This document shows, piece after piece, positions 16,207-62,571 of a DNA stretch of 64,000 bases. The notes beneath the pieces are model-generated. The model was not told where the DNA came from, did not search any database, and saw nothing but the letters and a program-made list of their open reading frames with translations. The stretch's first letter is position 1; the number at the start of each line of letters is the position of its first letter. Made by a program: the position numbers and the translations under genes. Origin of the DNA: an uncultured Candidatus Saccharibacteria bacterium (GTDB lineage: Bacteria > Patescibacteriota > UBA1384 > JAMDBS01 > DAOVQR01); NCBI GenBank assembly GCA_964481135.1, contig CAYZSW010000001.1:7963-71962 (forward strand), written 5' to 3'.

Positions 16207-16294
16207 TTAAAAGTTACTCTTTACAAATCACAAAAAAAACAGATAATATAAATAACATCTAATTGTATTTTAAAAATTAAAAGGAGGAAGTGTT

Positions 16295-35290: not shown

Positions 35291-35382
35291 ATACAATGTT
35301 CAAAACAAATGTTTAGGATTTTGTATTTTGTTCATTGAAATTTGTTTAAGATTTCAAAATTCGAAATTCAGATTTGAATGAT

Positions 35383-38301: not shown

Positions 38302-38371
38302 AAGCTAATTTTAGCATATTAACAAATGGAATAAAAGTTAAAAATGTCGTACAATATAAATAGAATACTAA

Positions 38372-38788: not shown

Positions 38789-38824
38789 TATTAGCAACCA
38801 GTTGAATTCGTAATAGGTATTAAT

Positions 38825-42230: not shown

Positions 42231-42259
42231 TTTATCCCTCCCTATTGATAGAAGCAGAA

Positions 42260-42697
42260 TTACGCAGATAGTGACGCAGAAGTACGCGGAACTTTACTGC
42301 GAGCTTTATCATAAACTCTGCGTATTATTTCTAACTTTTCCGCTCCAAAATTTATTAATAATCCTAATTTATATTTTGAACCTTTTAAATATAACCAAAA
42401 TTGTCGCTTATCTTCTTTAGTTATAAATGGTTTGCATTTAAGTTCTAAAAGAATTTTATCATTTATTATTTTATCTGGTTGATATATTCCAACCTTTTTA
42501 TTATTGAAATAAATATTAATTTTTACTTGATTTTTTACTTTAAGATTTTTGTTTTCTAGAGCAATAGTTAATGCCCTGTCAACAATTTTTTCTTTAAATG
42601 CTCCACCAAAGCATTTCCATACTTCAAAACATGCTCCTCTGACCTTGTAAGTTATATCTTTATAAAGTAATTTGTCTTGATTCATATGCTTCTGCAT
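42260..42697 (-). CDS. GxxExxY family protein
   Basis: GACFEVWKCFGGAFKEKIVDRAL signature. Flanked by imperfect inverted repeats rich in CTGCGTAATT and ACGCAGATA. Confidence 0.7.
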   Translation of the reverse strand: MQKHMNQDKLLYKDITYKVRGACFEVWKCFGGAFKEKIVDRALTIALENKNLKVKNQVKINIYFNNKKVGIYQPDKIINDKILLELKCKPFITKEDKRQFWLYLKGSKYKLGLLINFGAEKLEIIRRVYDKARSKVPRTSASLSA

Positions 42698-42775
42698 TAT
42701 TCTGCGTAATTATCTGCGTTTATCGGCTTCTACAATTTATTAAATCAAAAATATTAATATTTCACAAGTGGATAA

Positions 42776-45795: not shown

Positions 45796-45849
45796 TTTCC
45801 CTCCTAAATACGCAAATCGTATAACACGAAAATGCATAAATTATTTTTA

Positions 45850-46609: not shown

Positions 46610-48001
46610 CTATTTTAATGTTGTGGATAACTCAAAATCTACATCCTCATTTTTTTCTAAAGCAGTGATGGGTAAATTAATTTGGTTCATGAAATTTAAT
46701 TTGTTTAAATTATCTTTGAAAATAATTAGATCATTTCTACTTTTAGCGACACCTTTAATTTTTACATTTTTGTTACTTTCAATATTTATTTCTTTTAATG
46801 AAATATTTGAATCTGCGGAATCCATAATTTCTTCAATAAAATTTGGGTTGAGTGAATTTTCTAAAGGAATTGATTTGATTGTTGCAATTTTTGAATTAAA
46901 TTTTTTTATTTGCGCCTCAAGCTCTTCTTGTTTTGAACTGGTCTCAATATTTTGCAATTGAGCATATTCTTTACTTAAATTTAAATTATCGTAATAAATT
47001 TTTCCCCAGATAAACACATACGACAAAGCCAAAAAAATTACAAACAATATAAAATAATTTACAATACTAGAAAGTTTATAATTAATATTTTCATTTTTTG
47101 CATTTTCGCGAACTTCTGTTGGAGATAAACTAAGGTCTTCTAGCGAGAGGTTGAGTCCTAGATTGTCTATATAAGAAATATATTCCTGTTTAATATTTCT
47201 AATAATTTTAATATCGCTAGAATCACCTATCTTAATATTTTTTCCAATAGTGCTAATAATTTTTTGTTCAATATCAGAAAGATTTGGCGGACCAAAAATT
47301 AAAATTTGTGCAATATCTTCATTAAGATATTTTTTATTGTAATAATTAACTGTTTCTCCTATTATTCTCTCTAATCCTTTATAATTTGAGTCAATATAGC
47401 GTGATGTACTAAAATGAACATCTTTATTTTTTGCAATAACTATTGAAATATTGTTTGTTCTTGATAAATCAACTATTGCTATCAATTTATCTGAACTAGA
47501 CAGCAAACCAGCAAGTCCAGCAGAAGGGAAGGTAATAACCAAAGGTTTACATTTAGCTAAAACCAATGATTCAAAAAAACTATCTACAATCTTTTTTTCA
47601 CAAGCTGCGATAAGAACTATTAGTGCATTAGCTTTAGTGCCAATTATTTTCCAGTTGAAATATACTTCTTGAAGTTTAAAAGGAATTACTGATTCAATTT
47701 GATAAGTAATGGCAGAATCTACCTTGCTTACAGGCATCTTTGGAATCTCAATTGTTTTCAAAAAAACTTTTTCTTCTGGCAGTGCAGCAATAACTTCTGA
47801 TTGAGTGATTTTTTTAGGTTTAGCTTTTGATTTTAATTCAACAATAAGATCAGAAAAAATTTTAATTCTTTCGATTTTTCCTGCATTAACAACCCCTGCC
47901 GGTATATTGGCAGAAGCCACAGAATCAATATTTTTGCCAGTAATTTTACACAAACGAATCACATTGTTTGAATATGTTAGTGTAAAAAAATTGCGTTTCA
48001 T
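46610..48001 (-). CDS. pilM: PilM (actin-like ATPase) fused to a PilN-like TM and coiled-coil region
   Basis: Actin/HSP70-fold N-terminal 330 aa, then a TM helix (IVNYFILFVIFLALSYVFI) and a coiled coil. Confidence 0.6.
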   Translation of the reverse strand: MKRNFFTLTYSNNVIRLCKITGKNIDSVASANIPAGVVNAGKIERIKIFSDLIVELKSKAKPKKITQSEVIAALPEEKVFLKTIEIPKMPVSKVDSAITYQIESVIPFKLQEVYFNWKIIGTKANALIVLIAACEKKIVDSFFESLVLAKCKPLVITFPSAGLAGLLSSSDKLIAIVDLSRTNNISIVIAKNKDVHFSTSRYIDSNYKGLERIIGETVNYYNKKYLNEDIAQILIFGPPNLSDIEQKIISTIGKNIKIGDSSDIKIIRNIKQEYISYIDNLGLNLSLEDLSLSPTEVRENAKNENINYKLSSIVNYFILFVIFLALSYVFIWGKIYYDNLNLSKEYAQLQNIETSSKQEELEAQIKKFNSKIATIKSIPLENSLNPNFIEEIMDSADSNISLKEINIESNKNVKIKGVAKSRNDLIIFKDNLNKLNFMNQINLPITALEKNEDVDFELSTTLK

Positions 48002-48134
48002 TGTCGGATGCCCCTCCCTGCACAGAACTACACAAATATGAACACGGATTATACACTAAAATTGATAGTTTCATCACAAGAGCAACTAATCAGTGTATTA
48101 TTTTGTGTTCCCGCCTGTGTGAATTTTGTGTGTT

Positions 48135-48596
48135 CTAATATATTTCTTCGATATTATTAATAATCAGAATTCCGCTTGCATTAAAAGTAGCTAAAGCTTC
48201 AACTTTACAGATGTATCTATTGTTATTAACACGGCTTACAATGTTTATGTTTTTTGGGTTATCCCCAGTTATATCTATTATAACACTTCCGTCATCAAAA
48301 ATTAAGTTTGTGCCAGCAAAAGATGGATCCCGCATAATTCTCAAAATGGATTCATCTATTGCTGATATTGCATTGTTGTAGGCCTCGTCAGATTTTTTTA
48401 AATTAAAACTCATATCAGTATCAATTAAAACATTTTGTAAAACAACAGTTACTGCCAACAAAGCAACGGCTAAAATTACCATAACAGCTACCATGGCAGA
48501 ACCCTTTTCACATACAGAACCACACAAAAATGAACACATATTTACACTCTTCTTATGTAACTTTAATTTATTTATTGATGGTAATTGATGTGTCAT
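48135..48596 (-). CDS. hypothetical membrane protein, possible minor pilin (PilX-like), start uncertain
   Basis: N-terminal hydrophobic helix but no canonical GFTLIE. An alternative start ~48494 (MVAVMVIL) follows an AAAAGGG RBS. The annotated start sits inside a CA-rich repeat. Confidence 0.35.
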   Translation of the reverse strand: MTHQLPSINKLKLHKKSVNMCSFLCGSVCEKGSAMVAVMVILAVALLAVTVVLQNVLIDTDMSFNLKKSDEAYNNAISAIDESILRIMRDPSFAGTNLIFDDGSVIIDITGDNPKNINIVSRVNNNRYICKVEALATFNASGILIINNIEEIY

Positions 48597-48624
48597 TTTG
48601 TGTTCCTATTTGTGTTGATTTGTG

Positions 48625-49119
48625 TTACTTAAGGTAGTATGTTGTTTCAAATTCCTGCGAAATATCACGCTTACCCTCAACCTCTCCAATAAAATTAATA
48701 TTTATTTTAATTTGTATACTAGGCCTGCCTCCGACATTGGCAATTTTACGAAATTCTAAACTTTCTACTTTAACTTGGTTTGAGGTAACATTATCAAAAT
48801 CACCGCTTTCTGATCGAATTAATGTACCCGATATCAAACCATAACTCACATCTCCAGCTATTAAATTATTTGTTGGGTTGTTATCGTTTGGCACATCGAC
48901 ACTACTTGCATTTTGCAAATCACGAATAATTAACTCTGTGACAAACCTACCATTTTTTTGAATTTCAAGTCGTGCAGTTTCTTCTTGAGAAAAATAACTG
49001 GCAGTAATTAATAAGTTTGTAATTATTAAAAGAATTATCGATAAAAGCCCCATATATATAATGGTTTCTATGAGGGTGAAACCACCTTCAAATTTTTTTC
49101 CACTTTTATATTTTTTCAT
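48625..49119 (-). CDS. pilin-like protein with prepilin-type N-terminal cleavage/methylation domain
   Basis: KFEGG / FTLIETIIYMGLLSIILLI. Confidence 0.65.
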   Translation of the reverse strand: MKKYKSGKKFEGGFTLIETIIYMGLLSIILLIITNLLITASYFSQEETARLEIQKNGRFVTELIIRDLQNASSVDVPNDNNPTNNLIAGDVSYGLISGTLIRSESGDFDNVTSNQVKVESLEFRKIANVGGRPSIQIKININFIGEVEGKRDISQEFETTYYLK

Positions 49120-49326
49120 AATTAAATAAAATTTCTAATTTTTCTAATTGATCTAATTATTCTAAACAAATACCAAACTATAATTTCTAATGTCTAAATG
49201 TATTTTCTCTTTTTTGTTATTGGTGTTTGGGTCATTTTTTAGGTTAATTACCTGCCCGCCATTAGCTATCGCTTCAAGCGATTAGCAGGCGGGGAAATTA
49301 GGTTAATTAGGTTAATTTCTACTCGC
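49120..49326. repeat. repeated leader element, copy B
   Basis: GAAATTAGGTTAATTAGGTTAATTTC, a CCTGCCCGCC...GGCGGG hairpin and TTAGAATAATTAGATCAATTAG, ending in CAATTAGAAAAATTAGAAATTT before an ATG. Confidence 0.5.
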
Positions 49327-51251
49327 TATGGTGAATAATTCACCGACACATCGTAAACAACCGGTGTTTTGCTATTCTCAAGTGTTGTTAAATATATTTT
49401 ATATTTTATATATCTTCCTAAAGAATGTGAAAGAGGAATTGCTTCTCCATCTGGATTGGTAAATCGCGTTGCTTCTGTTCCGTCTGGTCCTACAAAATTC
49501 CATGTTGCATTATCAGTATTAGTAGCAATTTGGAATTCTACATTTGTTACTCCGGGATCGATCAATTCTGTCCAAAAAATCCGATTAAATGAAACTTCAT
49601 CACCTGCATCAAAAGTACTTGATATATATTGCCCAGACGGAAAGTAACCAGTTTCTGCGATAGCTGAAAGTCGAAACATTGTATCTTGATTATTAAATAC
49701 ATTCCAATTTGTACCGGCATTATTGCTTTCTGTATATCTTGCATCTAAACCCAGATAATTAATATCATTGTCTGGGCTTCGGTCTAAATTTTCTGCGTGT
49801 TCTATGTGATATGATCGATTATGTGCAGTTCCAGGTGATTTTAGATAAAATCTATATTGCCTTCCTTCTATAAAAGCAATTTTTGGGTCAAGTGAAATTT
49901 CATGTAGTTGATAATCCATAGTAATATCTGTTCTTGTAACAAAAATTTCGTTAAATAAAATAGTATTGGTTGTCATATCTTCAATAACTAAATATAAATC
50001 ATCTTGAGGCTGAGCACCAACACTTTTTTTAACATAAATTGCCATTCTATTAAAAAACTCTGTACCCTCTTTGTAAGTAAAAATTTCTCCTTTATAAAAA
50101 TTTCCGTAAACATCTTTGTCTCGTGCTTCATGATATGGATTTCCTTCGGCTTCTGGGTTGCTATCAGTAAATAATAAAATATAAACAGGCGTATTATTAA
50201 CATCTGACCAGTTTGCGCCACCATTACTAGTCCAGCGGATCATAAGATTTAAATCATCTGCACTAGTTAAAGGCACAACCAAGTTTAAAGGATTTAAAGT
50301 TCTAAATATAATTGATCTTCCGGCATTTATTTGACCTGAATTATGCTCTATTACTAGGTGATAAATATTACCAGCTGTAATAGAAACATTTTCATTTAAA
50401 TTAAGTTCATGCCAGCCAGTGTTATTAGTTTGAAAATCTTTATAACCCTCATTATTACCTCCCAACCAATTACCACTTGGACTACCGTTATTATCTGATT
50501 GCAGTCCATATCTATATGTAGGAGTTTGATTTTGATGAGTAGAAGAAATGTAAATTCTAAGCGCTCTTACCTCTTTTGTATTTTGAGCAGTAAAACGAAA
50601 AGAAACTTTTTTACTTGAATTATCTAATGCATCTGTTTGGCTAGTACCAAAAACAGAGAATCTGTTACCAACTTGCTTGCCTTCACCTTGTCCATAAGCA
50701 AGCTTAATTTCACCACCTTGATCGTTTGTAACTTCTGTATCATTTACAGTCCCATCTATAAAATCATTATAAGTTGTTTCAATCCAATTAGCATTGTTTT
50801 GATAACGAGTCAGATATATTTCCTTAGATATAGATAAATTACGGGGTTTTTGCCAAGAAACAGAAATAATAAATTTTTTTGTCGATGGGTCCTCAATTCC
50901 ACTTTCTGATATTTCTCCGCTAACCGCATTACGGTAAACTGATTCGATAGAGATGCTTCTAGTAAAATTATCATCGATATTTTCTACACCATCTGCTAAA
51001 TTCCACACTCCGTTATTATTTATAATACGAGCGGGATATGTATGATAAACTAAGTCATTCCACGACCGCTCGTGTATTGAATAAAGAGCATTAACTGCTT
51101 CTTGAACATATTCTTCTGCTTGAGTTTGTTTTAATGAATTAAACTGAGCTTGTGAAATATCTACAAAAAGACCAATAACTGAACTAATTATTACACTAGC
51201 AATAGCAGTAGCAATAATAAGCTCAATTAGAATTTGACCTTTATTTGACAC
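49326..51251 (-). CDS. large (~640 aa) pilin-like protein, candidate tip or PilY1/PilV-like adhesin subunit
   Basis: The ORF-track N-terminal extension translates a CA-rich leader. A GTG ~51251 gives MSNKG / QILIELIIATAIASVII, a classic short prepilin leader, followed by 600 aa of beta-rich sequence. Confidence 0.5.
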   Translation of the reverse strand: MSNKGQILIELIIATAIASVIISSVIGLFVDISQAQFNSLKQTQAEEYVQEAVNALYSIHERSWNDLVYHTYPARIINNNGVWNLADGVENIDDNFTRSISIESVYRNAVSGEISESGIEDPSTKKFIISVSWQKPRNLSISKEIYLTRYQNNANWIETTYNDFIDGTVNDTEVTNDQGGEIKLAYGQGEGKQVGNRFSVFGTSQTDALDNSSKKVSFRFTAQNTKEVRALRIYISSTHQNQTPTYRYGLQSDNNGSPSGNWLGGNNEGYKDFQTNNTGWHELNLNENVSITAGNIYHLVIEHNSGQINAGRSIIFRTLNPLNLVVPLTSADDLNLMIRWTSNGGANWSDVNNTPVYILLFTDSNPEAEGNPYHEARDKDVYGNFYKGEIFTYKEGTEFFNRMAIYVKKSVGAQPQDDLYLVIEDMTTNTILFNEIFVTRTDITMDYQLHEISLDPKIAFIEGRQYRFYLKSPGTAHNRSYHIEHAENLDRSPDNDINYLGLDARYTESNNAGTNWNVFNNQDTMFRLSAIAETGYFPSGQYISSTFDAGDEVSFNRIFWTELIDPGVTNVEFQIATNTDNATWNFVGPDGTEATRFTNPDGEAIPLSHSLGRYIKYKIYLTTLENSKTPVVYDVSVNYSP

Positions 51252-51333
51252 AGAATTACACAAATTGGAACACAAATTACCACACCTATTAAGTTGATGT
51301 GTATTTCTGTGTTCTGTTTTGTGTTTTTCTGTG

Positions 51334-51858
51334 TTAATTAACATCAATTACTCCCAACTTATTAATTGTAAAATTTCTAGTTTCGCCGGAGCTTAACTCA
51401 GATAATGAAAAATTTTTATTTTGCTCATCGTAATTCCTTACATTACCAAAAACTTTCTCAAAGACAATTGTCGAATTATCTGGTAAATTTGAATCTAATG
51501 ATAAATTGTCTGGTAAATTTACATTGATATTATAATTATCACTCGGGTTATAAATAATTCCCCGATATAAAACAATTTTATTTTCAACTGAATCAAAATA
51601 TATGCTAAAATTTTCGCCCGACTCAGCTGTATCGCAATTTTGGGTACACATTCTACTCATTGCCTGATTCTGTGCCTGATATATAGTAGATAATATTTGA
51701 GTCGAAAAAGAATCCAAACTGTTGGTTCGTTGAAAATTTAAATAAGAAACCCACGATCCAGCTAAAATAATACCAAAAATTCCTATCGTCACTAATAGTT
51801 CAATTAAAGTAAAACCTTTTTTAACTTGTAGCTGGTAGCTTTTTAGCTTATTAGACAA
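51334..51858 (-). CDS. pilin-like protein (prepilin-type N-terminal domain)
   Basis: TTG start after GGAGGGGC. KKG / FTLIELLVTIGIFGIILA. Confidence 0.65.
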   Translation of the reverse strand: MSNKLKSYQLQVKKGFTLIELLVTIGIFGIILAGSWVSYLNFQRTNSLDSFSTQILSTIYQAQNQAMSRMCTQNCDTAESGENFSIYFDSVENKIVLYRGIIYNPSDNYNINVNLPDNLSLDSNLPDNSTIVFEKVFGNVRNYDEQNKNFSLSELSSGETRNFTINKLGVIDVN

Positions 51859-51948
51859 TGCCCCTCCGTTTACTAGCTTATTAGTTTGTAGCCTTTTAAC
51901 TTATTAGAGAAAAATATCTAAGAAGCTAATTAGCTAATTCCTAAGAAG

Positions 51949-52407
51949 CTATTTTAAATGCTCTTTAATCTTTTCTACAACTTGATTTGGTGTAAGGTTT
52001 GCTTTTACTAAATAATCATTTGCGCCAAGTTTTTTTGCTCTATCAATATCAGTTTGCTGGCCAAGATTAGAAAATACTACTACTGGTTTTTTGGCGTTCG
52101 GCCAACTACTGGCACGAAGTTTTTCTAATATTTCAAATCCATCTACTTTTGGAAGCATCAGGTCTAAAAGTATAATACTATAATCATTTTTCTCTAATTT
52201 TTCTAAAGCTTGTTGTCCATCAAGAGCATTATCAACTTCAAAACCTTCCATTGAACATTTTGTTGAATACATTTTTACTAGTAATTCATCGTCTTCTATA
52301 ATTAATAATTTACCACCATTTTTTTCCAATTGTGCTGATTGATTAGCTGTATTGTCTGCTGGCTGTGGTTGACCCTGAGGTTGAACTGGTATTTGTTGAT
52401 TTTGCAT
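51949..52407 (-). CDS. single-domain response regulator (CheY-like receiver only) with a Q/P-rich N-terminal tail
   Basis: REC-domain motifs (LLIIEDD, DLMLP, receiver lysine region). Start chosen at MQNQQ after GAAAGGAG. Confidence 0.7.
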   Translation of the reverse strand: MQNQQIPVQPQGQPQPADNTANQSAQLEKNGGKLLIIEDDELLVKMYSTKCSMEGFEVDNALDGQQALEKLEKNDYSIILLDLMLPKVDGFEILEKLRASSWPNAKKPVVVFSNLGQQTDIDRAKKLGANDYLVKANLTPNQVVEKIKEHLK

Positions 52408-52456
52408 AATTATACTCCTTTCTTTCACACAGAACTACACAAATAGGAATACAAAT

Positions 52457-52882
52457 TTACACTTTAGTTAAAAACGGTTTTCTATCATTGGTGTAAATGA
52501 TTCTTTTGACATATAGTTTTAGTGTAGAAAAATTTACTAAATAACCTATTTCATATTTACTATTTCTTAAATAATGATAAAGTTGTATTTCGTCTTGTTT
52601 AGTAGTGAATCTTGACGATTTCAATTCTATAATAATTTTATTATCGATAATTACATCTGGTTTATAACTTCCTACTTTTTTACCAGTCTGATTAGAATAA
52701 ATACTAATTAATTTTTCTTTTTCAATTTTTATTTGTTTATTTGTTAAATATTCAATCAATAAATTCTGATAAATTGATTCTTTGTGACCAGGTCCGTATT
52801 CCTTTCTTATTTCGAAAAAACATCCTTGAACAATATAGCTTAATTCCTTGTAAAGGAACAGCTTCTTATCTGGTGCGTTCAT
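52457..52882 (-). CDS. GxxExxY family protein
   Basis: [29 protein letters not shown]. Start MNAPDKK follows AGGAACACAA. Flanked by ~20-bp imperfect inverted repeats at 52425-52465 and 52870-52920. Confidence 0.7.
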
Positions 52883-53023
52883 TTGTGTTCCTGTTTGTGT
52901 TGTTTTGTGTTGTAACCAACGGTAATGTAAAGCTAAAATTGGAGCCATGCCCTTCGCGACTCTCTACCCATATTTTACCACCACATCCTTCAACTATCAA
53001 TCGGGAAATGTAAAGGCCTAAAC

Positions 53024-55201
53024 CTAATCCTGACCCTGACCTTCGATAACTTTTTTAGTTCCACCAGATACTTGATAATACTTAGTAAATAATGCCTCTT
53101 GTTTTTCTTCGGAAATACCTTGTCCAGAATCAGAAATAGAAAACTGGGCGAATTTATCTTTTAATTGTATATCAAATTTAACCCAACCACTTTTAGTATA
53201 TTTTATAGCGTTATCTATTAGATTAGTAAGAACTTGCTGAATTTTATCAGAATCAGTATAAACAAAAAGTTGCTCAGGAATTTCCTCAAGCTTAAATTCA
53301 AGACCTTTTTTCTCGGCTATTGGAGATATCTGTTTAATTAAAGTTTTTACAATGGGAATAATATCTATATTTTTTGGCTGAATAGTAATTTTCCCTTTTT
53401 CTATACGAGATGAAGTTAAAAAATCATTAACCATGCGAATTAATCTTTCGGAAGCAGATTGAGTTTCTTTAAGTGGTTCGCGTAAAGTTTCTGGAATTTG
53501 CCCAAAGTCACCATTTAAAATCATATCATTATATCCCTTAATGGCTGTCATTGGAGTTCTTAGATCGTGTGCGGCAATATTTAAAAATTCATCTTTCATT
53601 TTTGCAAGTTCTCTTTCTTTTGAAACATCATGAAACACTACCACGCAACCTATAATTTTATTGTTATTATCTCGTAGAGGAGAAGCACTATCTGCAACTG
53701 GAATTTTTTTATTATATTTTGTAAGTAGGTAAGTATGATTTGTCATATAGGTAATCGTGCCACTAGTCATAGCGTCTCGGACAAATTTATCATTTATTGA
53801 ATTGTCTTTTTCTAAATAAAATTTAAGTATATCTTTGTATACTTTGCCAACTGCTTCTTCTTTAGTATATCCAGAAATTTTTTCTGCAATAGAGTTAAAC
53901 ATAATTATCTTTTCATCTAGTCCAATTACAAATACAGCATCTCCAATAGAAGAAAGTATTGCTTGAATTTTATTTCGTTCGTGTTCAGTTTTTAGTTTTT
54001 CCTCATTTACATCTTCTAAAATATTTAAAATTGCCTTTTGTTGATTTTGCATTTTTTGATCGTTTAGTTTAATCTCTTTTGTTTGCTCTTCTACTTTTTT
54101 ATCAATTTCGGCACGAGATACTTTAATAGCACTAGTTAAATTATCAATTTCTCTTGATAGGTCTCCGATTTCATCTTTAGAATTATTACCAACCTTGTAA
54201 TCCAAATCTCCTTTTTGAATAATTTTTATGCCTTTATGCAAATTTTCAATTGGTTTAGAAAGAATGCGAGCAACAAATAGAGCTACCGCAAAAGAAAATA
54301 ATAAATAAACTAAACTAATAACTATCAAAATATTTATTTCATGATTAATTGGCGCAAAAACTTCCTTTTGATCAATCTTAACAACTAGTCCCCAGCCGGT
54401 GTGGTCAATATAACGAGACGCAGAAAAAACTTTTTCGTTACGATAATCAGCTAAATCTGTAAAGTAATCTTCGTTATTTAAAAGTGCCTGAACAAGTGGT
54501 ATGTGTGTATCTAATTTAGTTACTTTTACACCGGGTGGATAAGGATGTCTGGTTTCTAAAAAATACTCAACATCATTGTTTTCATCTAACCTAGCAATTA
54601 TTGTTTCTCCTGTTTCACCCAACCCAGAGTAATCATTCATAATATTAATTATTTCTTCTGGACTTGTTTGAACAATAGACACACCTAACACATTTTCATC
54701 TTTTTGTATTGGGCCGGCAAGATAAAACCAATTTTCTTTATTTTCTTCGTCTTTTACAAATGTAATATAATTTTTTTCCTTGCCAAATTCAAAATATTCT
54801 TCGCTAGAAAAATTTTTGTTTTCTTGATCTTTTTCACTTGAAGCAATAACTTTACCATCTTTATCTGTTATCCAAAGAGCGTTATAATCTGTACTTGATT
54901 TTTTAGCATCTTCTAATCGTCGCGAGAGGTCATCTTTGTCTATTGAATCAGGATTGTTATAATAATCCTGCATTAAATCAATAACCCCCACTCTTGAAGT
55001 AAAAATTTTAATTCGTTCTAAATTAATATTAATAAGATTTTCAACTCTTGATTCTTGTAAATCTGCTATTACATTTAATTTTTCCTCGGTATTATCTAAA
55101 GCATTTTTTCGCATCTCAAAATAACCATAAAAAATGGATATCAAAAAAGAGAAAAATGCTATACAAACTATGCTAATAATAATTCTTGTTCTGATTTTCA
55201 T
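53024..55201 (-). CDS. sensor histidine kinase (TM, extracytoplasmic domain, HAMP, PAS, HisKA, HATPase_c); 3' end frameshifted in an A6 run
   Basis: [14 protein letters not shown]-box and [10 protein letters not shown]1 box. The ORF stops at GQGQD, but the G2 box [41 protein letters not shown] continues in another frame down to ~52876. Confidence 0.75.
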
Positions 55202-55252
55202 AATAATTATATTGGTAACGCGTAATGGGTAATAAGTAACGCGTAATTAATA

Positions 55253-55789
55253 TTATCTAATATTTTTTCTTGCCGCATACATTCTTTCAGCTAAACCACC
55301 ATTTTGTAAAAAATCTTTTTCTAAACTCTGAAGCTGGCGATCTAATAGATAGTTAGCTTGGTGAATTAAACAAATTATTGAATTTGCTGCAGATTCTGGA
55401 TCTGACATATAGGTCATATAAGTCTCATAAGACCTATTCGACCTATAAGATAATTTTCTAATTTCCTGAATTCGTGAATCTTCTTTGTTCCAAAGTTTTA
55501 ATTTTTTCTGACGCAAAAAATCCAAATAATCTTCTAAAAGTTCTTCTAAACTTGCCCTAGCCACACCAATAAGTTTTATTTCAGATTTTTTTGATGTACC
55601 TGAAACTTGACTTCCTTCAACAATATTTTGCTTTCCACTTCTTGCGGCTTGGACCATTTGATCACGCGTCCTAGAAAATTTACTAACATATTTATTACAA
55701 AATTGGTCTGTCAAATCGTAAACTATAACCGAATTTTGATAGGATTTTAACTTTTTGTATCCTCCATGAATAGATATAAAATTTGACAT
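55253..55789 (-). CDS. four-helix-bundle protein (TIGR02436 / 23S rRNA intervening-sequence protein family)
   Basis: KSYQNSVIVYDL...GKQNIVEGS pattern; 178 aa. Confidence 0.65.
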   Translation of the reverse strand: MSNFISIHGGYKKLKSYQNSVIVYDLTDQFCNKYVSKFSRTRDQMVQAARSGKQNIVEGSQVSGTSKKSEIKLIGVARASLEELLEDYLDFLRQKKLKLWNKEDSRIQEIRKLSYRSNRSYETYMTYMSDPESAANSIICLIHQANYLLDRQLQSLEKDFLQNGGLAERMYAARKNIR

Positions 55790-55887
55790 TTAATTTTTCC
55801 TTAAATTTTATTTATTCTACTATCTTACCTACTTGCCTACAGGTCTTACTATTTATCTACCATCCTACTGGCCTACTTTCTACTAGC

Positions 55888-56208
55888 CTACTTGTCTAAT
55901 TTCTCCACTAACTTCATAATTTCTTCTTGGTGTTTTTTTACTACTTCCTGATTTCTAAATTTTTTGGCAAACTGGGCTAATTCTCTTAGGGAATTTATGA
56001 TTGATTCTTTGGTTGGATTTTCAAAATCCCCTCCGGAATCAACGAATGCTTTTTTAACAATTTCTACACAGTATTCTTTTTCCATAGATTCCTGATTAGA
56101 AACTCCTGCATCGCTACAATGTGCCTGGCTAAAACATTCGCTTATTGCATCGCGCACCATAAGTGGTGTAATTTTTTCATTTAAATCAACTCCGTAAATT
56201 TTTGTCAT
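55888..56208 (-). CDS. hypothetical protein
   Basis: 106-aa acidic ORF. Leader has (A)GTAGG repeats. Confidence 0.4.
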   Translation of the reverse strand: MTKIYGVDLNEKITPLMVRDAISECFSQAHCSDAGVSNQESMEKEYCVEIVKKAFVDSGGDFENPTKESIINSLRELAQFAKKFRNQEVVKKHQEEIMKLVEKLDK

Positions 56209-56259
56209 AATTTTCCTTTCTAATGGCCTACTAGCCTATCTTTCTACTAATCCAAAGGC

Positions 56260-56472
56260 CTAGCGTTTATCTAAATTAATTATTCTTAAAATTTCCTCGC
56301 AAATTTTCATATGTTCAATTTCTTCGTCACGGATTTTTTCCACAACTTCTCTTTTTTGAGGATCTTTTAAAGTAAGCAAATAATTAGAATACAAATCCTT
56401 TGCTTGTTTTTCTATAAAATACAAATCATAAAACATTTCCCTTAATGTATCGTGACTATTTTCCTTGTTCAT
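56260..56472 (-). CDS. hypothetical small protein
   Basis: 70 aa. DEEIEHM is faintly ferritin-like. Overlaps the upstream gene by 17 nt. Confidence 0.3.
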   Translation of the reverse strand: MNKENSHDTLREMFYDLYFIEKQAKDLYSNYLLTLKDPQKREVVEKIRDEEIEHMKICEEILRIINLDKR

Positions 56473-57631
56473 ATTTTATAAGCTCCTTAAATTTATTTTC
56501 ATGATCTATACTCTCCTCGACTAAGTGATTTAATCTGTTAATTATTTGCTGTTTTTTTTCATTATCTAAATCAGAATGCTCTACTTTTAGTAAATAATAT
56601 GATTTTAATTTTTGAATTACACTTTCTTCGACATCTATTGCTATTTGAAATTTTTCTTCCCAGGTTTCTGAATCTTCTGTTTTATATTCTTTATTTTTTC
56701 TTAATTTGCTAATTTGTTCTTTCAGTTCAATCATTCTGATTTCTCTGCCGACTAACACTTCATTAATTTTTTCTAATTCCTTAGTTCTTTGGGCAACTTT
56801 TCCTTCAATATTTGTTTTTTCTTCTTTAAGCTTGTTAGTCATTTGATTGATATTTTCACTAAGTAATCCTATTTCATCTCGTGATTTAATTTCTAATTTT
56901 TTATCTAAATCTCCATCAATAATCTTTTGTGAAATATCCTGAATCTGTCTAACTGGGTTTAAAATTGATCTAATAAAGATAAAATAAATTATTATTAGAA
57001 AAATAATAAAAATTATTATAAAAACAATATACAAATAAATTTGATAGTTGATTGATTTTTTTAAATTTTCATTTGATTGACTTAATTTTTTGGTGGATAA
57101 ATCTATAGCTTCATCGTATGCCGTATTGCGTTTAGTTAAATATTGATCTAGACCAGATTTATAAATTTCTTTTTGTTTCCAATACTCACTGCTTTCCAAT
57201 ATTTTTTGCGCCTCATCTTTATTGCCTTCATCAACTAATTTTATTGCCTCTTCTTCCATTGCAACAAGTGCAAGATTGGCTTCATCTACATTGGAAAATG
57301 CTTGTTTATCTTCATCGTCTCCTTTTTCTATAGCTTGATTTATTCTTAGCTCGAGTTTAGGCACAAATTCTTCATATCTAGTTTTCCACTTTTTATCTCC
57401 TGTAAAAGCATAATTTCTAGCCGATTGGGTTAATACTTCATCGTCATAGCGAATAAGCTCAGCTATACCATCAAGATATGAAGTTTCATTTAAATCATTA
57501 ACTAATTCGGTAAAATCAGTTTCTAAATAATTAATATTTTTACTTTCTTCAGAAATAATAAAATACCCGACTGAAATTGTCAGCATCATTAACGCAATCA
57601 AGATTAATAATATTTTTGTTCTGATTTTCAC
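56456..57631 (-). CDS. HAMP-domain membrane protein (MCP-like sensor module with no output domain)
   Basis: TM, 170-aa periplasmic domain, TM, HAMP (DEIGLLSENINQMTNKLK), coiled coil ending LVGREIRMIELKEQISKL. N-terminus MKIRTKI is paralogous to the kinase MKIRTRI. Confidence 0.6.
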   Translation of the reverse strand: MKIRTKILLILIALMMLTISVGYFIISEESKNINYLETDFTELVNDLNETSYLDGIAELIRYDDEVLTQSARNYAFTGDKKWKTRYEEFVPKLELRINQAIEKGDDEDKQAFSNVDEANLALVAMEEEAIKLVDEGNKDEAQKILESSEYWKQKEIYKSGLDQYLTKRNTAYDEAIDLSTKKLSQSNENLKKSINYQIYLYIVFIIIFIIFLIIIYFIFIRSILNPVRQIQDISQKIIDGDLDKKLEIKSRDEIGLLSENINQMTNKLKEEKTNIEGKVAQRTKELEKINEVLVGREIRMIELKEQISKLRKNKEYKTEDSETWEEKFQIAIDVEESVIQKLKSYYLLKVEHSDLDNEKKQQIINRLNHLVEESIDHENKFKELIKYEQGK

Positions 57632-57694
57632 ATTTGCTCCGCAAAACTTATAACTAATATTTCATAACTCATAACCATATCTAATAACTTAAAA

Positions 57695-58084
57695 CTATTT
57701 TTTGCCTTTTAAAGTCAATAAACTAGAAGCAAGCATTTTGGTTATTTGTTGACATTCGTCTAATAACGGTTCTGCCTCTTTTTTCTGAATTAATTTTGAA
57801 TCTTTCAATAAACTTAGCCAATACAATGTTTCATTGGCAGATTTTAAAGAAATATCATAATATTTAATAAATTCTTTTTTTGAACTAGATGATTTTGCTT
57901 CTACAATATTTGCTCCAATAGATGTTGATGATCTTAAAAGTTGATCTGAAACTATCCAATACATTTTTTTATTAGGCAAGCTATTTATAAACTTGATAAT
58001 GGATAATGAAAAATTATACGCTCTAATTTTTACATTAGAAGATTTAACATTTGAGTTATGATTATGAGTTATGAGTTTTAACAT
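57695..58084 (-). CDS. four-helix-bundle protein (TIGR02436 family)
   Basis: YNFSLSIIKFINSL...RSSTSIGANIVEAKS. Its ATG lies 3 nt after the PAS gene stop. ATAACTCAT-type inverted repeats occur at both ends. Confidence 0.65.
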   Translation of the reverse strand: MLKLITHNHNSNVKSSNVKIRAYNFSLSIIKFINSLPNKKMYWIVSDQLLRSSTSIGANIVEAKSSSSKKEFIKYYDISLKSANETLYWLSLLKDSKLIQKKEAEPLLDECQQITKMLASSLLTLKGKK

Positions 58085-58089
58085 ATGAA

Positions 58090-59337
58090 TTATTTTCCTT
58101 TCAACCTTTCAATCTCTTTTTTAAGCTCTATCATTTTAAGTTCGCGACCCACCATAAGATTATTCATTTTTTCTGTAAATTGCGTTTGTTTTTTTAATTT
58201 TTCTTGCGCTTCCATTTCTTTTGAAATATCAAAAATAAATCCTTCTAGGTGTTTAATATTTCCCTTATTATCTTTTATTGCAAGTCCCTTTTCATGAACC
58301 CAAATATTTTTTTCATCTTTACTTATGATACGATAATCAATTTCCCAGTATCTATTTTCTTTTACTGCCTTGGAAATTCCTTCTGATACTAGACTTCTAT
58401 CTTGTTTGTAAATTACACTTTCATAAGTTCTAATTTTATTTTCTACAAAATCACTTGCCTTATATCCACACAACTGCTCAATATAATTACTTACAAACAT
58501 CATGGTCCAATTTTTATCAAACTTACATTTGTAAATAATTCCCGGGATATTATTAACTAAATTTGAAAATTCTTTTTGAAACTGCTCAAGCTTAATTTTA
58601 TTTAGCTTATTTTCATTAATATCTCTATCTATTCCTCTATATCCGGTGGATCCATCTTGTTTTTTTACTGGTAGACCATAACTTAAAATCCAAAATATTT
58701 TTCCATTTTTATCTAAAAGACGATTTTCTAAATTGATTGTCTTTTTACCTTCTTTAATAAAAGCTAAGCCAATTTTTTTAATTTCTTCTTTGTCTGGAGA
58801 CAAATCATAAAAATGTTTTTTGCCAATGACCTCTTCTGGCTTATATCCCAAAACTTGTTCTATAGAAGGACTTACATATGTATACAAACCATTTTCATCA
58901 ACTTCCCAAATAAAAGATTTGCTTTCACTAACTAAACTTTCGTATGCCTTATTTAATTCAAGAATTTTTTGTTCGTTTTTAATTCTATTGGTAATATCGT
59001 GAGCTAAACTTAAAATTGCTTTTTTGCCATGAAAGTCAATAACTTGGGAATTAATTTCTACTGGAATTTCCCTGCCATTACTTGTAACATGAGCCGAACG
59101 AAATACTAACTTTCCTTTGGATTTTAACTCCTGGATTCTTTGGGGCACCATTTTAGCATATTTAGGTGAATCAATTTTCTGTGGGCCAATTTCTAATAAC
59201 TGTTCTTTGGTGTATCCTAACCGACTGCAAGCTTCTTTATTGACATCTAAAAAATTACCCTCTAAGTCGTGGATAAATACAGCTTCATTTAAATTTTCGA
59301 ATATTATTTGATATTTATCATCCATTTTTGCTTTCAT
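58090..59337 (-). CDS. multi-PAS sensor protein lacking a kinase domain
   Basis: Three PAS/PAC-like repeats, then a coiled coil ending MVGRELKMIELKKEIERLKGK. Confidence 0.6.
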   Translation of the reverse strand: MKAKMDDKYQIIFENLNEAVFIHDLEGNFLDVNKEACSRLGYTKEQLLEIGPQKIDSPKYAKMVPQRIQELKSKGKLVFRSAHVTSNGREIPVEINSQVIDFHGKKAILSLAHDITNRIKNEQKILELNKAYESLVSESKSFIWEVDENGLYTYVSPSIEQVLGYKPEEVIGKKHFYDLSPDKEEIKKIGLAFIKEGKKTINLENRLLDKNGKIFWILSYGLPVKKQDGSTGYRGIDRDINENKLNKIKLEQFQKEFSNLVNNIPGIIYKCKFDKNWTMMFVSNYIEQLCGYKASDFVENKIRTYESVIYKQDRSLVSEGISKAVKENRYWEIDYRIISKDEKNIWVHEKGLAIKDNKGNIKHLEGFIFDISKEMEAQEKLKKQTQFTEKMNNLMVGRELKMIELKKEIERLKGK

Positions 59338-59366
59338 TTTTGAAAAAAATTTTAATTTTCTTAATG

Positions 59367-60596
59367 TTATCTGTTGGAAAAATTACCAACTAAACCATAT
59401 ATCGGGCTAATAATTGTTAAAACTAAAGCAGCTACAATTATTCCCACTATTAACATTAATACTGGTTCAATAAGATCAGACAGTGTTTTCAGCATAATAT
59501 CAACCTGCTCGTCATAATACTCCCCTAGTTCACTCAAAACCTCATCCATCTTGCCTGATTTCTCACCAACTTTAGTAATTTTAATCAACATATTTGGAAT
59601 TACTTTTGAATGAGACGCAAAAGATTGAGACAATGATTTACCACCCCTGACTAATTTTTCTGAATCAATAATTGCATTTTTTAAATTTATATCAAAAATA
59701 CCTTCTGAAACGATTTTCAAAGAATCTGTCATTGGAACACCTGCATGTAATAAAAGTGATAAAGTAGAAGTTATTCTAGACATATCGTATGCCTGAGTAA
59801 GTTTTGAAACATAAGGAATCTTTCTTAAAAAAAAGGAATTGGTATTTTTTCCTGCAGAAGAACGAAAAAAAACAATAACAAAAATAATAATTATAAAAAG
59901 AATTGGAAAACTTAAATACCAAAAATTTATAAAAATCGTTGTTAGAAACTGTAGAATTTTTAAAGTAAAAGGTAAATCTATTTGCATTCTGGCAAAAACT
60001 TCTAATATTTTTGGCACAACTAAAATTAACATTACAAAACCCATAATAGCTAAAGCAACAAGCACAACAATTGGATAAGTAAAAGCAGAAACTACTTTTG
60101 TTTTCATACGAACAGTTTTTGAAAGTTGTTTATAAATACTAGCCAAAACTTCTGAAATTTTTCCACTAACTTCTCCTGCCGAAACCAAAGAAATAAAGGT
60201 TTTGTCAAAAATTTCAGGATATTTTGCTAATGCTTGGGAAAGTGGACGGCCACTTTCAATATCATATTTTATTTCAATTAGAATTTTATTAAATTTTTTT
60301 GATTTTGTATCTTGAGATATCACTTCAATAGAATCGGCAATTGGCATACCAGATTTAAGCATTGTAGAAAGATTTCTAGCAAATGTTGCCTTGTCATTAA
60401 TACTTACTCCGCCAGAAAACATCTCGGCAATCGAAAATTTGGAAAATGCAGAATCTTCTTTTTTTTGAATTGTAATTATCGTATATTTTTGAAGTTTTAA
60501 AAAACTAGCGATTTCATCTTCGCTTGAAGCGACTTTTTCGCCTTTGATTATTTCATTATTTGAACCCATTGCTTCATAATAAAAATTCATTATCAA
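59367..60596 (-). CDS. pilC: type IV pilus assembly platform protein PilC (GspF family)
   Basis: Two T2SSF repeats and 3 TM segments; 409 aa. Confidence 0.85.
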   Translation of the reverse strand: MIMNFYYEAMGSNNEIIKGEKVASSEDEIASFLKLQKYTIITIQKKEDSAFSKFSIAEMFSGGVSINDKATFARNLSTMLKSGMPIADSIEVISQDTKSKKFNKILIEIKYDIESGRPLSQALAKYPEIFDKTFISLVSAGEVSGKISEVLASIYKQLSKTVRMKTKVVSAFTYPIVVLVALAIMGFVMLILVVPKILEVFARMQIDLPFTLKILQFLTTIFINFWYLSFPILFIIIIFVIVFFRSSAGKNTNSFFLRKIPYVSKLTQAYDMSRITSTLSLLLHAGVPMTDSLKIVSEGIFDINLKNAIIDSEKLVRGGKSLSQSFASHSKVIPNMLIKITKVGEKSGKMDEVLSELGEYYDEQVDIMLKTLSDLIEPVLMLIVGIIVAALVLTIISPIYGLVGNFSNR

Positions 60597-60688
60597 CCGT
60601 TCTAAATGTTGAATATGTTCTATCTCTTTATTTGTTCAAATTGCTACAATTACAACACTTTGAACAATTAGAACATTTTGAACATTTT

Positions 60689-62377
60689 TTAAGCTTTTGT
60701 TACCCTCAGAACTTCTTCAATTGTTGTTACTCCTTCTCTAACTTTTTTAATCCCATCTTGATGAATAAAAACCATACCTTCTTTTTGTGCTTGTTTTTTA
60801 ACTTCTTCTATTGTTGGGTTTTTATTAATGATTTCTGAAATAGTTGGAGTAACATCTAAAATTTCATAAATTCCAATCCTACCTTTATACCCTGAATTAT
60901 TACATTGTTTACAACCTTTGCCTCGATAAAATTTAATATTTTCTGTTTCTTTCATTCCCAAAGAATCTAAAATACTTTTACTCGGTTCATAGCTTTCAAT
61001 ACAATTAGCACAAATTTTTCTAACTAGTCGCTGAGCAATAATCACATTTAGTGTTGAAGCTAAAAGAAAAGGTTGTATTTTTAAATCAATAAATCTAAAA
61101 ATAGCAGAAATAGAATCATTAGTATGAAGTGTAGAAAGCATAAGGTGTCCAGTTAGAGCAGAATGAACAGCAATTTCTGCAGTTTCAGTATCTCGAATTT
61201 CACCCACCATAATTATGTCTGGGTCATGACGCAAAAAAGCTCTAAGCCCGGATGCGAAAGTAAGTTTAATCTCTGGTTTTACTTGAGTTTGCTCTATACC
61301 TTCAATGCCATATTCTATAGGATCTTCAATAGTACAAATTTTAATATTTGAGGTATTTAAAATATTTAAAATCGAATACAAAGTAGTTGTTTTACCCGAA
61401 CCTGTTGGACCTGTTACTAAAATCATTCCAAAAGGTTTAGCAATAGATTTTTTTACCAGTTCTAAATTTTTGCCATCAAGGCCTAGCTCGTTCAAAGTTA
61501 AAACTCTTTGTGATTCTTTTAAAATTCTCAACACAACATCTTCACCATAAAACGAAGGCACGATTGAAACTCTAAGAGAAACAAATTCTTTTTTTCCTTT
61601 AGAAAATTTAAAACGACCATCTTGAGGCAGACGAGTTTCATCTATTTTTAAGCGTGCCAAAATTTTTATTCTAGCCACTAGTGCATCATCGATTTCTTTT
61701 GGAAGATCAATAACATTTTGTAGTACACCATCAACTCTAAATCTAATTCTTGTTTTATCTTCCCATTTTTCAATATGTATATCTGAAGCATCTTGCGATA
61801 GCGCATGGTCTAAAATTGTATCAATAATTTTTACAACCGGTACATCTTGAGCAACTTTTTGAATACCTTGAATTTCTTCTTCAGGTACTGAAACCTTTGA
61901 TTTTTCAACATTTTCATTAATAATTTTTGCAAAATCTTTTTGAATATCTGCTTTGTATTTACCCAGTGCTTCATCTATATCTCTTGCGCTTGCTAGATAC
62001 GGTTTAACACTATACCCAGTTTTTTTTCGAATAAAGTCAATTACTTCAAAATCAGAAGGATTCTCCATTGCCAAGTGAATTAAACTATTCTCTTTATTGA
62101 ATGCTACGATTCTGTATTCTCTTGCTGTTTCTTCTGGAATAAGACTTAAAACTTGCTCTGAAATTTTTTGGGAACTTAAATCAATATAATCAACACCCAA
62201 AACTTCTGCAATAGTTTTAGTTAGATATTCTTCGGAAATTAAACCTTCTTCTACTAAAATATTGCCCAGACTTTTATCTTGGCCTTTTGTTTTTTCAAAT
62301 GCTTTTTCTAAATCTTCTAGTTTAACTAAGTTTGATTTAGCAACTATTTCTTTTAATTGATCATCAGAAATTTGCAT
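60689..62377 (-). CDS. pilB: type IV pilus assembly ATPase PilB (GspE family)
   Basis: Walker A GPTGSGKTTTL, Asp box, His box and a CxxC-type tetracysteine. Start MQISDD follows CAGGGAGGGGC. Confidence 0.9.
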   Translation of the reverse strand: MQISDDQLKEIVAKSNLVKLEDLEKAFEKTKGQDKSLGNILVEEGLISEEYLTKTIAEVLGVDYIDLSSQKISEQVLSLIPEETAREYRIVAFNKENSLIHLAMENPSDFEVIDFIRKKTGYSVKPYLASARDIDEALGKYKADIQKDFAKIINENVEKSKVSVPEEEIQGIQKVAQDVPVVKIIDTILDHALSQDASDIHIEKWEDKTRIRFRVDGVLQNVIDLPKEIDDALVARIKILARLKIDETRLPQDGRFKFSKGKKEFVSLRVSIVPSFYGEDVVLRILKESQRVLTLNELGLDGKNLELVKKSIAKPFGMILVTGPTGSGKTTTLYSILNILNTSNIKICTIEDPIEYGIEGIEQTQVKPEIKLTFASGLRAFLRHDPDIIMVGEIRDTETAEIAVHSALTGHLMLSTLHTNDSISAIFRFIDLKIQPFLLASTLNVIIAQRLVRKICANCIESYEPSKSILDSLGMKETENIKFYRGKGCKQCNNSGYKGRIGIYEILDVTPTISEIINKNPTIEEVKKQAQKEGMVFIHQDGIKKVREGVTTIEEVLRVTKA

Positions 62378-62571
62378 GCCCCTCCCTGTAAACAAATATA
62401 CACAAATCAGAATACAAACCAACACGCTGAAATTGATATTTTGATCAGTAAAATAATATTACTAGTGTGTTATTTTATTTTCGCATCTGCGTATATTTGT
62501 ATTATAGAGTCTATTTCATTATATCAAAAATTAGGATATTTAGATATTGTTAATTGTCTAATAATATTATT

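Follow-up and report, generated by a model that had tools for sequence, protein, structure and literature searches.

A type IV pilus locus and its palindromes

The 64-kb window analysed here, by which we mean the whole 64,000-nt stretch of contig CAYZSW010000001.1, is chromosomal DNA with a GC content of about 30%. It carries housekeeping genes (dnaK/grpE/dnaJ, dnaE, lepA, gltX, murJ and those of ribosomal proteins) and, between 45.3 and 63.8 kb, a type IV pilus locus in which every gene is on the minus strand and the pilus genes are interspersed with those for PAS, HAMP and histidine-kinase proteins and for a receiver-only response regulator. We describe a family of imperfect palindromes, each with a CA-rich and a GT-rich arm, that occurs five times within this locus (copies E1, E8, E10, E12 and E13), once around the small gene of a predicted GxxExxY nuclease. 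Identical copies of the pilB region were found in three public metagenome assemblies. Because PilC has about ten relatives at 58–71% identity before a drop to 36% for the next best, which bear Patescibacteria or Saccharibacteria names, we infer that the host belongs to a sparsely sampled lineage resembling the candidate phyla radiation (CPR).

All five arm pairs that an initial annotation of this DNA had listed are present (Table 1), and the family pattern, GTRTTCNNNTTTGTGTNNTTCTGT with at most three mismatches, has eight matches in the window against 0.09 expected, all of them between 48.0 and 62.4 kb. Each 5′ arm is built of about three tandem words of about 11 nt, with the consensus AACACAAA, and each 3′ arm of the complementary words, and the termini read 5′-CACA...TGTG-3′. 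Along the transcript, the stop codon or coding end of the upstream gene is followed by the 5′ arm, the loop, the 3′ arm and then the ribosome-binding site (RBS) or coding sequence of the host gene. The loop holds either a GxxExxY PD-(D/E)XK gene or just 10–60 nt. The copies without an open reading frame (ORF), namely E1, E10, E12 and E13, are 91–120 bp long with imperfect inverted arms of 35–45 nt. The five copies align over both arms at a mean column identity of 62%; they are homologous copies of one repeat and not merely alike in composition.

We folded the minus-strand RNA of the four ORF-less copies and compared each with 200 dinucleotide shuffles. The proposal that every junction can form a long imperfect hairpin on the operon mRNA was borne out, for E8 by a full 531-nt fold in which the long-range stem is retained in both the minimum-free-energy and the centroid structure; its flank duplex (−33.4 kcal/mol) ranks first among 67 genes. 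The companion expectation, that the stems would be more stable than those of shuffled sequences, held at E10, E1 and E13 and found weak support at E12 (Table 1). An Rfam E-value search of 47900-53000 returned as its sole match a spurious plant miRNA precursor on E10, and at the gathering threshold tRNA-Lys was the sole match in the whole window, which contains no rRNA. The hairpins lack U-tracts, and a promoter and terminator scan of 44–64 kb found no enrichment (113 promoter-like sites against 106 expected).

Table 1. Pilus genes and word-array elements of the window. Arms are in plus-strand coordinates; fold z of the CA-family copies refers to dinucleotide shuffles, with the count out of 200 in brackets.
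Feature	Coordinates	Strand	Arms	Content and position	Fold z
E1	62389..62502	−	62389-62427 / 62465-62502	ORF-less; in pilB 5′ untranslated region (UTR), between −10 box and native RBS GGAGGGGC	−5.26 (0/200)
E8	52426..52916	−	52426-52463 (3′) / 52880-52916 (5′)	full-length CA-family element; arms enclose GxxExxY ORF 52457-52882	
E10	51247..51337	−	51247-51286 / 51296-51337	ORF-less; in-frame 78-nt insertion in prepilin leader of large pilin	−6.64 (0/200)
E12	48509..48628	−	48509-48548 / 48590-48628	ORF-less; keeps cargo-type Shine–Dalgarno sequence (SD) and AUG (48596)	−1.56 (11/200)
E13	48021..48135	−	48021-48057 / 48092-48135	ORF-less; between minor pilin and pilM/N; native RBS CAGGGAGGGGC at 48010-48020	−2.70 (3/200)
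pilB	60689-62377	−			
pilC	59367-60596	−			
pilM/N	46610-48001	−			
Pilins	45370-45837, 48135-48596, 48625-49119, 49326-51344, 51334-51858	−			
4HB-1 element	57647..58079	−		ATAACTCATAAC-word arms enclose gene of four-helix-bundle '23S rRNA IVS protein' (57695-58084; IVS, intervening sequence)	−3.04
GAACA/TGTTC-word hairpin	60599..60688	−		ORF-less; pilB–pilC junction	−4.57
AGCTTCTTAG/CTAATAAGCT-word hairpin	51874..51952	−		ORF-less; response regulator–pilin junction	−3.09
TTCTAATT/AATTAGG element	49129..49319	−		ORF-less; pilin–pilin junction; inner GC-rich hairpin	−3.6
TTCTAATT family, second copy	3191..3340	−		outside pilus locus; between YebC gene and metallo-beta-lactamase-fold gene	−4.65
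Paralogous GxxExxY element	42249..42732	−		ACGCAGA/TCTGCGT-word arms around ORF 42260-42697; PF13366 98.8 bits	
Third GxxExxY element	38364..38821	+		41-nt inverted arms (I5) around ORF 38372-38788; PF13366 95.8 bits	
Inserted small-ORF cluster with word arrays	55202..56472	−			

The full-length copy and its cargo

The cargo of E8 is a 141-residue GxxExxY/PDDEXK_3 protein (TIGR04256, 95.6 bits against a cut-off of 35; PF13366, 94 bits against 22). Its SD, AGGAA, and its AUG (52882) lie at the apical end of the 5′ arm and its stop codon adjoins the 3′ arm, the stem joining the start of the ORF to sequence just beyond its end. On the upstream side, the 5′ arm is read in frame and supplies the histidine kinase with its 16 final codons and its stop, in place of the native tail found at the orthologous locus L134 (introduced below), and on the downstream side the 3′ arm gives way to the native RBS of the response regulator.

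In an alignment of GxxExxY proteins, E35, D76 and K88 are invariant and E86 is at least 90% conserved, and the AlphaFold2 model has a PD-(D/E)XK fold at a predicted local distance difference test score of 93. Judged from these residues and this model, the nuclease looks active. To our knowledge, no PDDEXK_3 protein has been characterised. A profile search of PDB sequences gave no match, and the best folds that Foldseek found in the PDB (Cas4, the AdnAB nuclease and lambda exonuclease) are generic PD-(D/E)XK nucleases at template-modelling scores of about 0.45, so that no specific enzymology, such as that of a junction resolvase, is assignable.

Both neighbours of E8 have peculiarities of their own. 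The histidine-kinase ORF (53024-55201) ends within HATPase_c, at profile positions 2–72 of 111, and the rest of the domain (...FSFTLPL) resumes in the −1 frame after an A6 run (ACTAAAAAAGTT; 53024-53060, on to about 52870, minus strand). The L134 orthologue has no such interruption; programmed slippage, a pseudogene or an error of sequencing might each account for the frame break. The response regulator is extended at its N terminus by about 30 residues, rich in Gln and Pro (MQNQQIPVQPQGQPQPADNTANQSAQLEKNGG; 52340-52428), which the L134 orthologue (MAKVLMIEDDE) lacks and which CA-rich DNA directly 3′ of E8 encodes.

ORF-less copies and the host genes around them

E1 is the second-longest inverted repeat of the window (I2), and its loop is related to that of E13 in the family alignment. 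E10 had been placed between two cistrons, whereas the whole hairpin proves to be an in-frame insertion: the native ATG of the large pilin, at 51344, overlaps the upstream stop in a sequence, ATGTTAATTAA, that is conserved with the relative L135, and the leader that reads MLIKAKKISG|Q there has become the 36-residue peptide MLINTEKHKTEHRNTHQLNRCGNLCSNLCNSVSNKG|Q in the window. The cargo-type AUG of E12 is in frame with the minor pilin 48135-48596, with the loop and 3′ arm encoding a leader of about 32 residues. As read from these frames and from the arm of E8, element sequence now serves host genes as a C-terminal tail, as start contexts and as prepilin leaders, and cleaved leader peptides and gene termini are evidently sites that tolerate such insertions.

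Two further placements change. The initial annotation put both AGGAACACAAA-AUG and CAGGGAGGGGC-AUG in the 3′ arm of the hairpins. The former lies instead at the apical end of the 5′, CA-rich arm on the minus-strand RNA, as the SD and start of the cargo or of its remnant; the latter, immediately 3′ of the stem, is the host's own native RBS, for which the element-free L135 has AAGGAGGGGCAUG. Separately, an unusually long SD-like motif, GGAGGGGCA(U), is conserved 5′ of pilB, pilM and one pilin both here (48010-48020, 51862-51870 and 62378-62388) and in relatives (L135, about 830–840).

CA-rich unstructured leaders are known translational enhancers, and a CA-rich tract also lies 5′ of fba. The CA tracts might then serve as enhancers or standby sites of the downstream host genes, with the GT arms incidental. 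On the mRNA, however, the CA arm comes after the upstream stop, the only AUG that it precedes is that of the cargo or its remnant, and it is the GU-rich arm that precedes host starts. Each CA arm has a complementary partner, the L135 orthologues have no CA arms, and the stretch 5′ of fba, which had been offered as a like case, has neither a partner arm nor a hairpin (z −0.74). We regard this explanation as very improbable.

Filled and empty junctions in related genomes

The related metagenome-assembled genome CSMAG_1580 (GCA_030628575.1; loci L006/L134 and L007), with 66–76% nucleotide identity over the pilus genes, contains the same three word families at different junctions: the junctions filled in the window bear different word families in L134, and the same families, AGCTTCTTAG among them, lie at other junctions of L006/L134. 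The histidine kinase–response regulator junction that E8 occupies is empty in L134, with stop and start 1 nt apart. The pilB–pilC junction is filled by 92 nt with the GAACA hairpin in the window and by a 155-nt CA-type hairpin in L134; in L135 it measures 4 nt, and in L136 a GxxExxY-bearing element occupies it. In L135, a more distant relative, five of the six junctions are compact (pilB–pilC as above, the others 9–14 nt or overlapping) and free of such hairpins. The pilB 5′ UTR without an element is about 35 nt in L135 and ranges over 20–35 nt in L135 and L136. The single hairpin of L135 lies in one pilin leader and is made of TCAAAAC words (z −2.49); elements with four-helix-bundle cargo in Kuenenbacteria and other Patescibacteria have arms of the same words. 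In L136, a GIY-YIG gene occupies a junction other than that of the GxxExxY element. Neither L135 nor L136 contains the CA pattern.

CSMAG_1580 also holds the closest homologue of the cargo, at 83% identity and with conserved arms, on another contig between unrelated genes. In its locus L007 (2225-2457, reverse-complement coordinates), two co-directional genes have between them a CA/GT element with a whole TTCTAATT/AATTAGG hairpin nested in its loop. Because the orthologous junctions are empty, or hold other families or a GxxExxY element, these comparisons identify the elements as insertions relative to compact orthologous operons.

E1, E10, E12 and E13 are small (below about 500 bp) and non-coding, with terminal inverted repeats, as are the MITEs, or miniature inverted-repeat transposable elements. 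Dispersed, polymorphic copies, as MITEs have, were likewise found, with five copies in the window, other sites in CSMAG_1580 and empty sites in L134, L135 and L136; dispersal within this genome is partly shown, the window copies lying within 15 kb. We put at roughly 80% the probability that the five CA/GT palindromes all belong to a single family of selfish, palindromic DNA elements inserted in pilus genes and their junctions. E8 is the full-length form and the other four are ORF-less, MITE-like derivatives.

Element ends or regulatory RNA

We find no sense-strand G·U bias, the antisense duplex being more stable in nine of 11 elements. Covariation in the CA family is minimal (3 of 28 consensus pairs compensated; alifold covariation term +0.84), and cognate arms pair little better than non-cognate ones (−33.9 against −31.6 kcal/mol, p=0.025). 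From this absent strand bias, minimal covariation and near-equal non-cognate pairing, we conclude that the arms behave like the ends of an element, conserved as DNA inverted repeats, and not like RNA structure under strand-specific selection. Complementarity persists in families with unrelated words, so that pairing is itself a conserved property of the class, and the stems must form when an element is transcribed.

The initial annotation had suggested that the hairpins are cis-regulatory RNAs controlling how much pilin is made relative to assembly proteins, whether by determining mRNA processing or stability or by acting as translational operators. Such a role has points in its favour: the stems are stable on the mRNA strand, nearly all junctions of the locus have a hairpin in both the window and L134, E10 and E12 put host start regions in or beside stems, and one leader position has a hairpin in both the window and L135. 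It sits poorly with the compact, hairpin-free junctions of L135, with orthologous junctions that bear unrelated words, a cargo-bearing element or nothing at all, and with the strand and covariation results above. Furthermore, unrelated loci have a selfish-looking nuclease gene between the same arms, whichever way that gene is oriented to its neighbours. A purpose-built regulator is thus unlikely; secondary effects on mRNA processing or translation are plausible.

A third possibility is that the tandem words are iteron- or operator-like sites for a regulator of the pilus and two-component locus. The words recur about every 11 nt, the length of one helical turn, and three words per arm resemble multi-site operators. 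Against this, different junctions have unrelated words, the response regulator of the locus has a receiver and no DNA-binding domain, and the same words stand beside GxxExxY genes in unrelated loci and organisms, which makes an operator array hard to credit. Selfish elements with inverted-repeat ends are our preferred account of the arms.

Other word families in the window

The CA family is just one of several word families that fill the junctions of the pilus locus. In the general design, tandem 7–12-nt words make up one arm and their complements the other, with a cargo ORF or a short loop between the two. Different families occupy nearly every junction, with a GxxExxY gene, a four-helix-bundle gene or nothing as cargo. 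Together these elements make up five of the seven longest inverted repeats of the window, and cargo genes rank first, second and fourth of the 67 window genes for complementarity between upstream and downstream flanks. The longest inverted repeat (I1) is the 4HB-1 element, whose stem is retained in a 476-nt fold and whose product scores 106 bits with TIGR02436 and 96.6 bits with PF05635. The paralogous GxxExxY element at 42 kb corresponds to inverted repeat I3 (43 nt at 77%) and ranks fourth for its flank duplex. At the response regulator–pilin junction, the AGCTTCTTAG words extend into the leader of the adjoining pilin.

The small-ORF cluster is arranged differently. It comprises TTACGCGTAA words (55202-55252), a four-helix-bundle+suffix protein (55253-55789; TIGR04258, 78.6 bits), a 106-residue ORF (55888-56208) without a match in Pfam, NCBIfam or the PDB, and a 70-residue ORF (56260-56472). 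The 106-residue ORF is bordered by GTAG-word repeats that are direct rather than inverted (55790-55887 and 56209-56259), and no inverted pairing was found in the cluster (z −0.8 to −1.3). Direct repeats that duplicate an upstream leader and RBS also border the GIY-YIG gene of L136 (6272-7054) and a GxxExxY gene on a Fusobacteria plasmid (L137); these direct-repeat flanks look like a second insertion mode.

Co-directional ORFs set apart by imperfect palindromes of variable sequence also recall integron attC sites and TIGR-Tas guide-RNA arrays, and TIGR arrays do occur in Patescibacteria (PMC12045711). The sole recombinase here, however, is XerC/D-like and reaches 141 bits with an integron integrase model whose cut-off is 265 bits, the genes are syntenic pilus genes, and no integron core sites (GTTRRRY) were seen on inspection; the integrase score and the synteny rule out attC sites. 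TIGR-Tas systems combine a Nop-domain Tas protein with 5–15 units of two alternating 8–12-nt repeats and 9-nt spacers (PMC12045711). No Nop-domain protein occurs among the window ORFs scanned, and the arms have about three inverted words in place of the alternating dual-repeat layout, which removes this candidate as well. We give next to no weight to recombination sites or guide arrays of either kind.

Cargo genes and their arms in other genomes

CA/GT arms surround GxxExxY ORFs of 65–88% identity at metagenome loci found by DNA pattern (L022, L041, L084, L070, L052, L076 and L031), and also at loci picked by protein alone (L185, L188 and L192). The loci are unrelated and the cargo occurs in either orientation, at times antisense to the neighbouring genes. 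More distant GxxExxY genes (30–43% identity) have word arms of their own, at 42249-42732 in the window, in L119, L056, L027 and L136, and on a Bernardetia plasmid, where the arms are CACAGAGA/TCTCTGTG. The words in GxxExxY arms across phyla resemble CAC-N-(G/A)-A-T: CACAAAT, CACAGAT, CACTGAT, CACGGAT and CGCAGAT occur among the arms of the window, L136, L138, L139, L047, L053 and L185, and the heptamer of the Coxiella IVS is GACAGAT. This may be a shared recognition motif, for which CAC-N-(G/A)-A-T is the candidate.

More than 120 GxxExxY clusters were found at 60–83% identity, and the best 120 matches of the four-helix-bundle protein, which include sequences named Levybacteria, Kuenenbacteria and Patescibacteria, have 59–71%. 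By these identities, the cargo proteins are far more conserved than host proteins, PilC falling to 36%.

A proposed life cycle and the points that weigh against it

We propose that the elements are or were mobile, that the arms act as their ends and that the GxxExxY nuclease is likely to drive their mobility or homing; from the comparisons above, they are probably mobile. Once co-transcribed, the stem would sequester the SD and AUG of the cargo and would offer a substrate to RNase III. Such processing is plausible by analogy with rRNA IVSs and with the Correia MITEs, at whose terminal inverted repeats RNase III cuts within operon transcripts (PMC10969869). Sequestration and cutting together would limit the harm to the host operon, and any effect on pilus gene stoichiometry would be a by-product or a later exaptation. 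The series of filled and empty junctions makes mobility directly testable.

Several points weigh against this account. The activity of the GxxExxY protein is a prediction from residues and model, and RNase III processing is argued by analogy. All five CA copies lie within 15 kb; the remaining ~49 kb of the window contains none, nor does a further 8.4 kb of L001, and this clustering could mean local duplication or gene conversion rather than transposition. Comparing filled with empty sites by eye, we saw no target-site duplication at E1, E8, E10, E12 or E13, and the window ORFs scanned include no known transposase, RAYT or mobile-type integrase. Most of 45 PDDEXK_3 loci on viral contigs have no inverted word arms, and some have direct repeats, which rules out that arms are universal to PDDEXK_3 genes. 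The four-helix-bundle cargo has no catalytic motif, which leaves no evident mechanism of mobility common to all families. Lastly, the hairpins may bring the host some benefit, because occupancy of the pilus-locus junctions is high in two genomes and one leader position is filled, by different families, in both the window and L135.

Further features of the window

Some observations concern repeats elsewhere in the window. The RuvC gene (minus strand, ORF 1653-2369) has an insertion of about 65 residues at about 2055-2249, after the N-terminal catalytic segment (ILAIDPGYGRCGWAIL), and its Pfam match begins at residue 106 and profile position 23. In this extra DNA, words of the TTCAAAAT/TTCGAAT type form a local hairpin and there is a GC-rich hairpin as well, but the overall fold z is no more than −0.97. 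The insertion may be another in-frame element.

The tRNA-Lys gene (12716-12790) is enclosed by a 25-nt inverted repeat of 92% complementarity (12703-12814), the outer 13 nt of which (ATGCACTCAGGAA / TTCCTGAGTGCAT) lengthen the acceptor stem into a structure like a processing stem. In the 564-nt intergenic region 3′ of this gene lies a near-perfect palindrome (13224-13295; TTTTACTAACCTCCGGGGTTAGTAAAAGG...), with 33-nt arms that are 91% complementary and spaced 6 nt apart. A GC-rich repeat, in an otherwise AT-rich genome, is present in three copies: at 6545-6700, 16060-16215 and 35190-35300, in long intergenic regions 5′ of dnaK and 5′ of a nitronate monooxygenase gene and beside a glycosyltransferase gene. 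All three share the core GCTTCGSGGAATTC, the first two also have CCACTTGTCCGCC...ATTAAATTT in common, and Rfam gave no match to the repeat.

Relation to known systems

Operon hairpins of MITE type, in-frame palindromic insertions and rRNA IVSs are each already known. In the literature, we found no description that links GxxExxY or four-helix-bundle genes with word-array inverted arms and ORF-less derivatives, nor one of such elements colonising operon junctions and leader peptides in CPR-like genomes. GxxExxY/PDDEXK_3 and the four-helix-bundle '23S rRNA IVS protein', two very abundant families without an assigned function, both occur here as cargo of selfish elements with hairpin arms, and this gives each of them a definite role in the genome. 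The elements also show how, in compact CPR-like genomes, genes are reshaped by the supply of C-terminal tails, start contexts and prepilin leaders, and they serve as a warning for annotation, in that ORF starts and apparent intergenic regulatory hairpins in these genomes often derive from elements.

Like the MITEs of operons (Correia/NEMIS of Neisseria, ERIC and Chunjie), the ORF-less copies are small, have terminal inverted repeats and form hairpins, are multi-copy, intergenic and co-transcribed, and can be nested in one another. Unlike them, they show no detected target-site duplication, and their arms are arrays of tandem short words. Their full-length partner with the same arms, represented by E8 and many metagenomic copies, encodes a PD-(D/E)XK protein of about 140 residues rather than a DDE or other recognised transposase.

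The Rickettsia palindromic elements are likewise palindromes translated in frame, as are E10 in its leader and the arm of E8 that forms the tail of the histidine kinase. The present elements belong to another family and lineage, however, their insertions are limited to gene termini and cleaved leaders, and a cognate ORF-bearing form exists. In the REP/REPIN–RAYT system (REPtron; REP, repetitive extragenic palindromic), too, a gene stands between inverted palindromic repeats and many ORF-less copies of the repeat are intergenic. The difference lies in the enzyme and in the arms: no RAYT transposase of the Y1 (HUH) type, and no Y1_Tnp domain, was found in any window ORF scanned, and the arms are AT-rich word arrays of 35–45 nt, whereas REPs are GC-rich, 20–40 nt long and tagged with GTAG or CGTC.

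The free-standing homing endonuclease genes of phages (seg and mob; GIY-YIG and HNH) resemble E8 as small nuclease genes between conserved genes, with presence/absence polymorphism and with the RBS and AUG of the cargo in a stem, and L136 has a GIY-YIG gene at an equivalent junction. In contrast to these genes, ORF-less copies with the same arms occur at several sites, which suggests that the arms are the mobile unit.

The same layout is that of the classical IVSs of 23S rRNA in Coxiella, Leptospira, Salmonella and others, which are enclosed by a long stem of terminal inverted repeats and may carry an ORF in the loop. In the Coxiella IVS, which RNase III excises, a 28-bp terminal inverted-repeat stem surrounds a loop with the S23p ORF, and three tandem GACAGAT heptamers precede the ATG of that ORF (PMC4990558). 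Here, three AACACAAA-type words stand directly 5′ of the ATG in the same manner, members of the S23p (PF05635) four-helix-bundle family occur at 57695-58084 and 55253-55789, and the element at 57647-58079 has the full IVS layout of an enclosing stem around a four-helix-bundle ORF, which the CA family repeats with a GxxExxY ORF. This common build connects the long-puzzling rRNA IVSs to a wider set of elements, at home in protein-coding operons as well. The elements here differ in lying in protein-coding operons, at junctions, in a 5′ UTR and in leader codons, rather than in rRNA helix 9, 25 or 45, in the PD-(D/E)XK cargo of the CA family, which is not S23p, and in that RNase III excision, known for the IVSs, is here proposed by analogy.

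We raise, tentatively and with more doubt than confidence, a broader reading of these likenesses. GxxExxY (PDDEXK_3) proteins may be the nucleases of an unrecognised class of mobile elements with ends made of tandem CAC-N-(G/A)-A-T words about one helical turn apart, with ORF-less MITE-like derivatives, and with insertion at gene boundaries and even in frame within cleavable leaders; the 23S rRNA IVSs, whose origin and mobility have been debated as open questions since 1990, would be members of the same superfamily that happened to land in rRNA.

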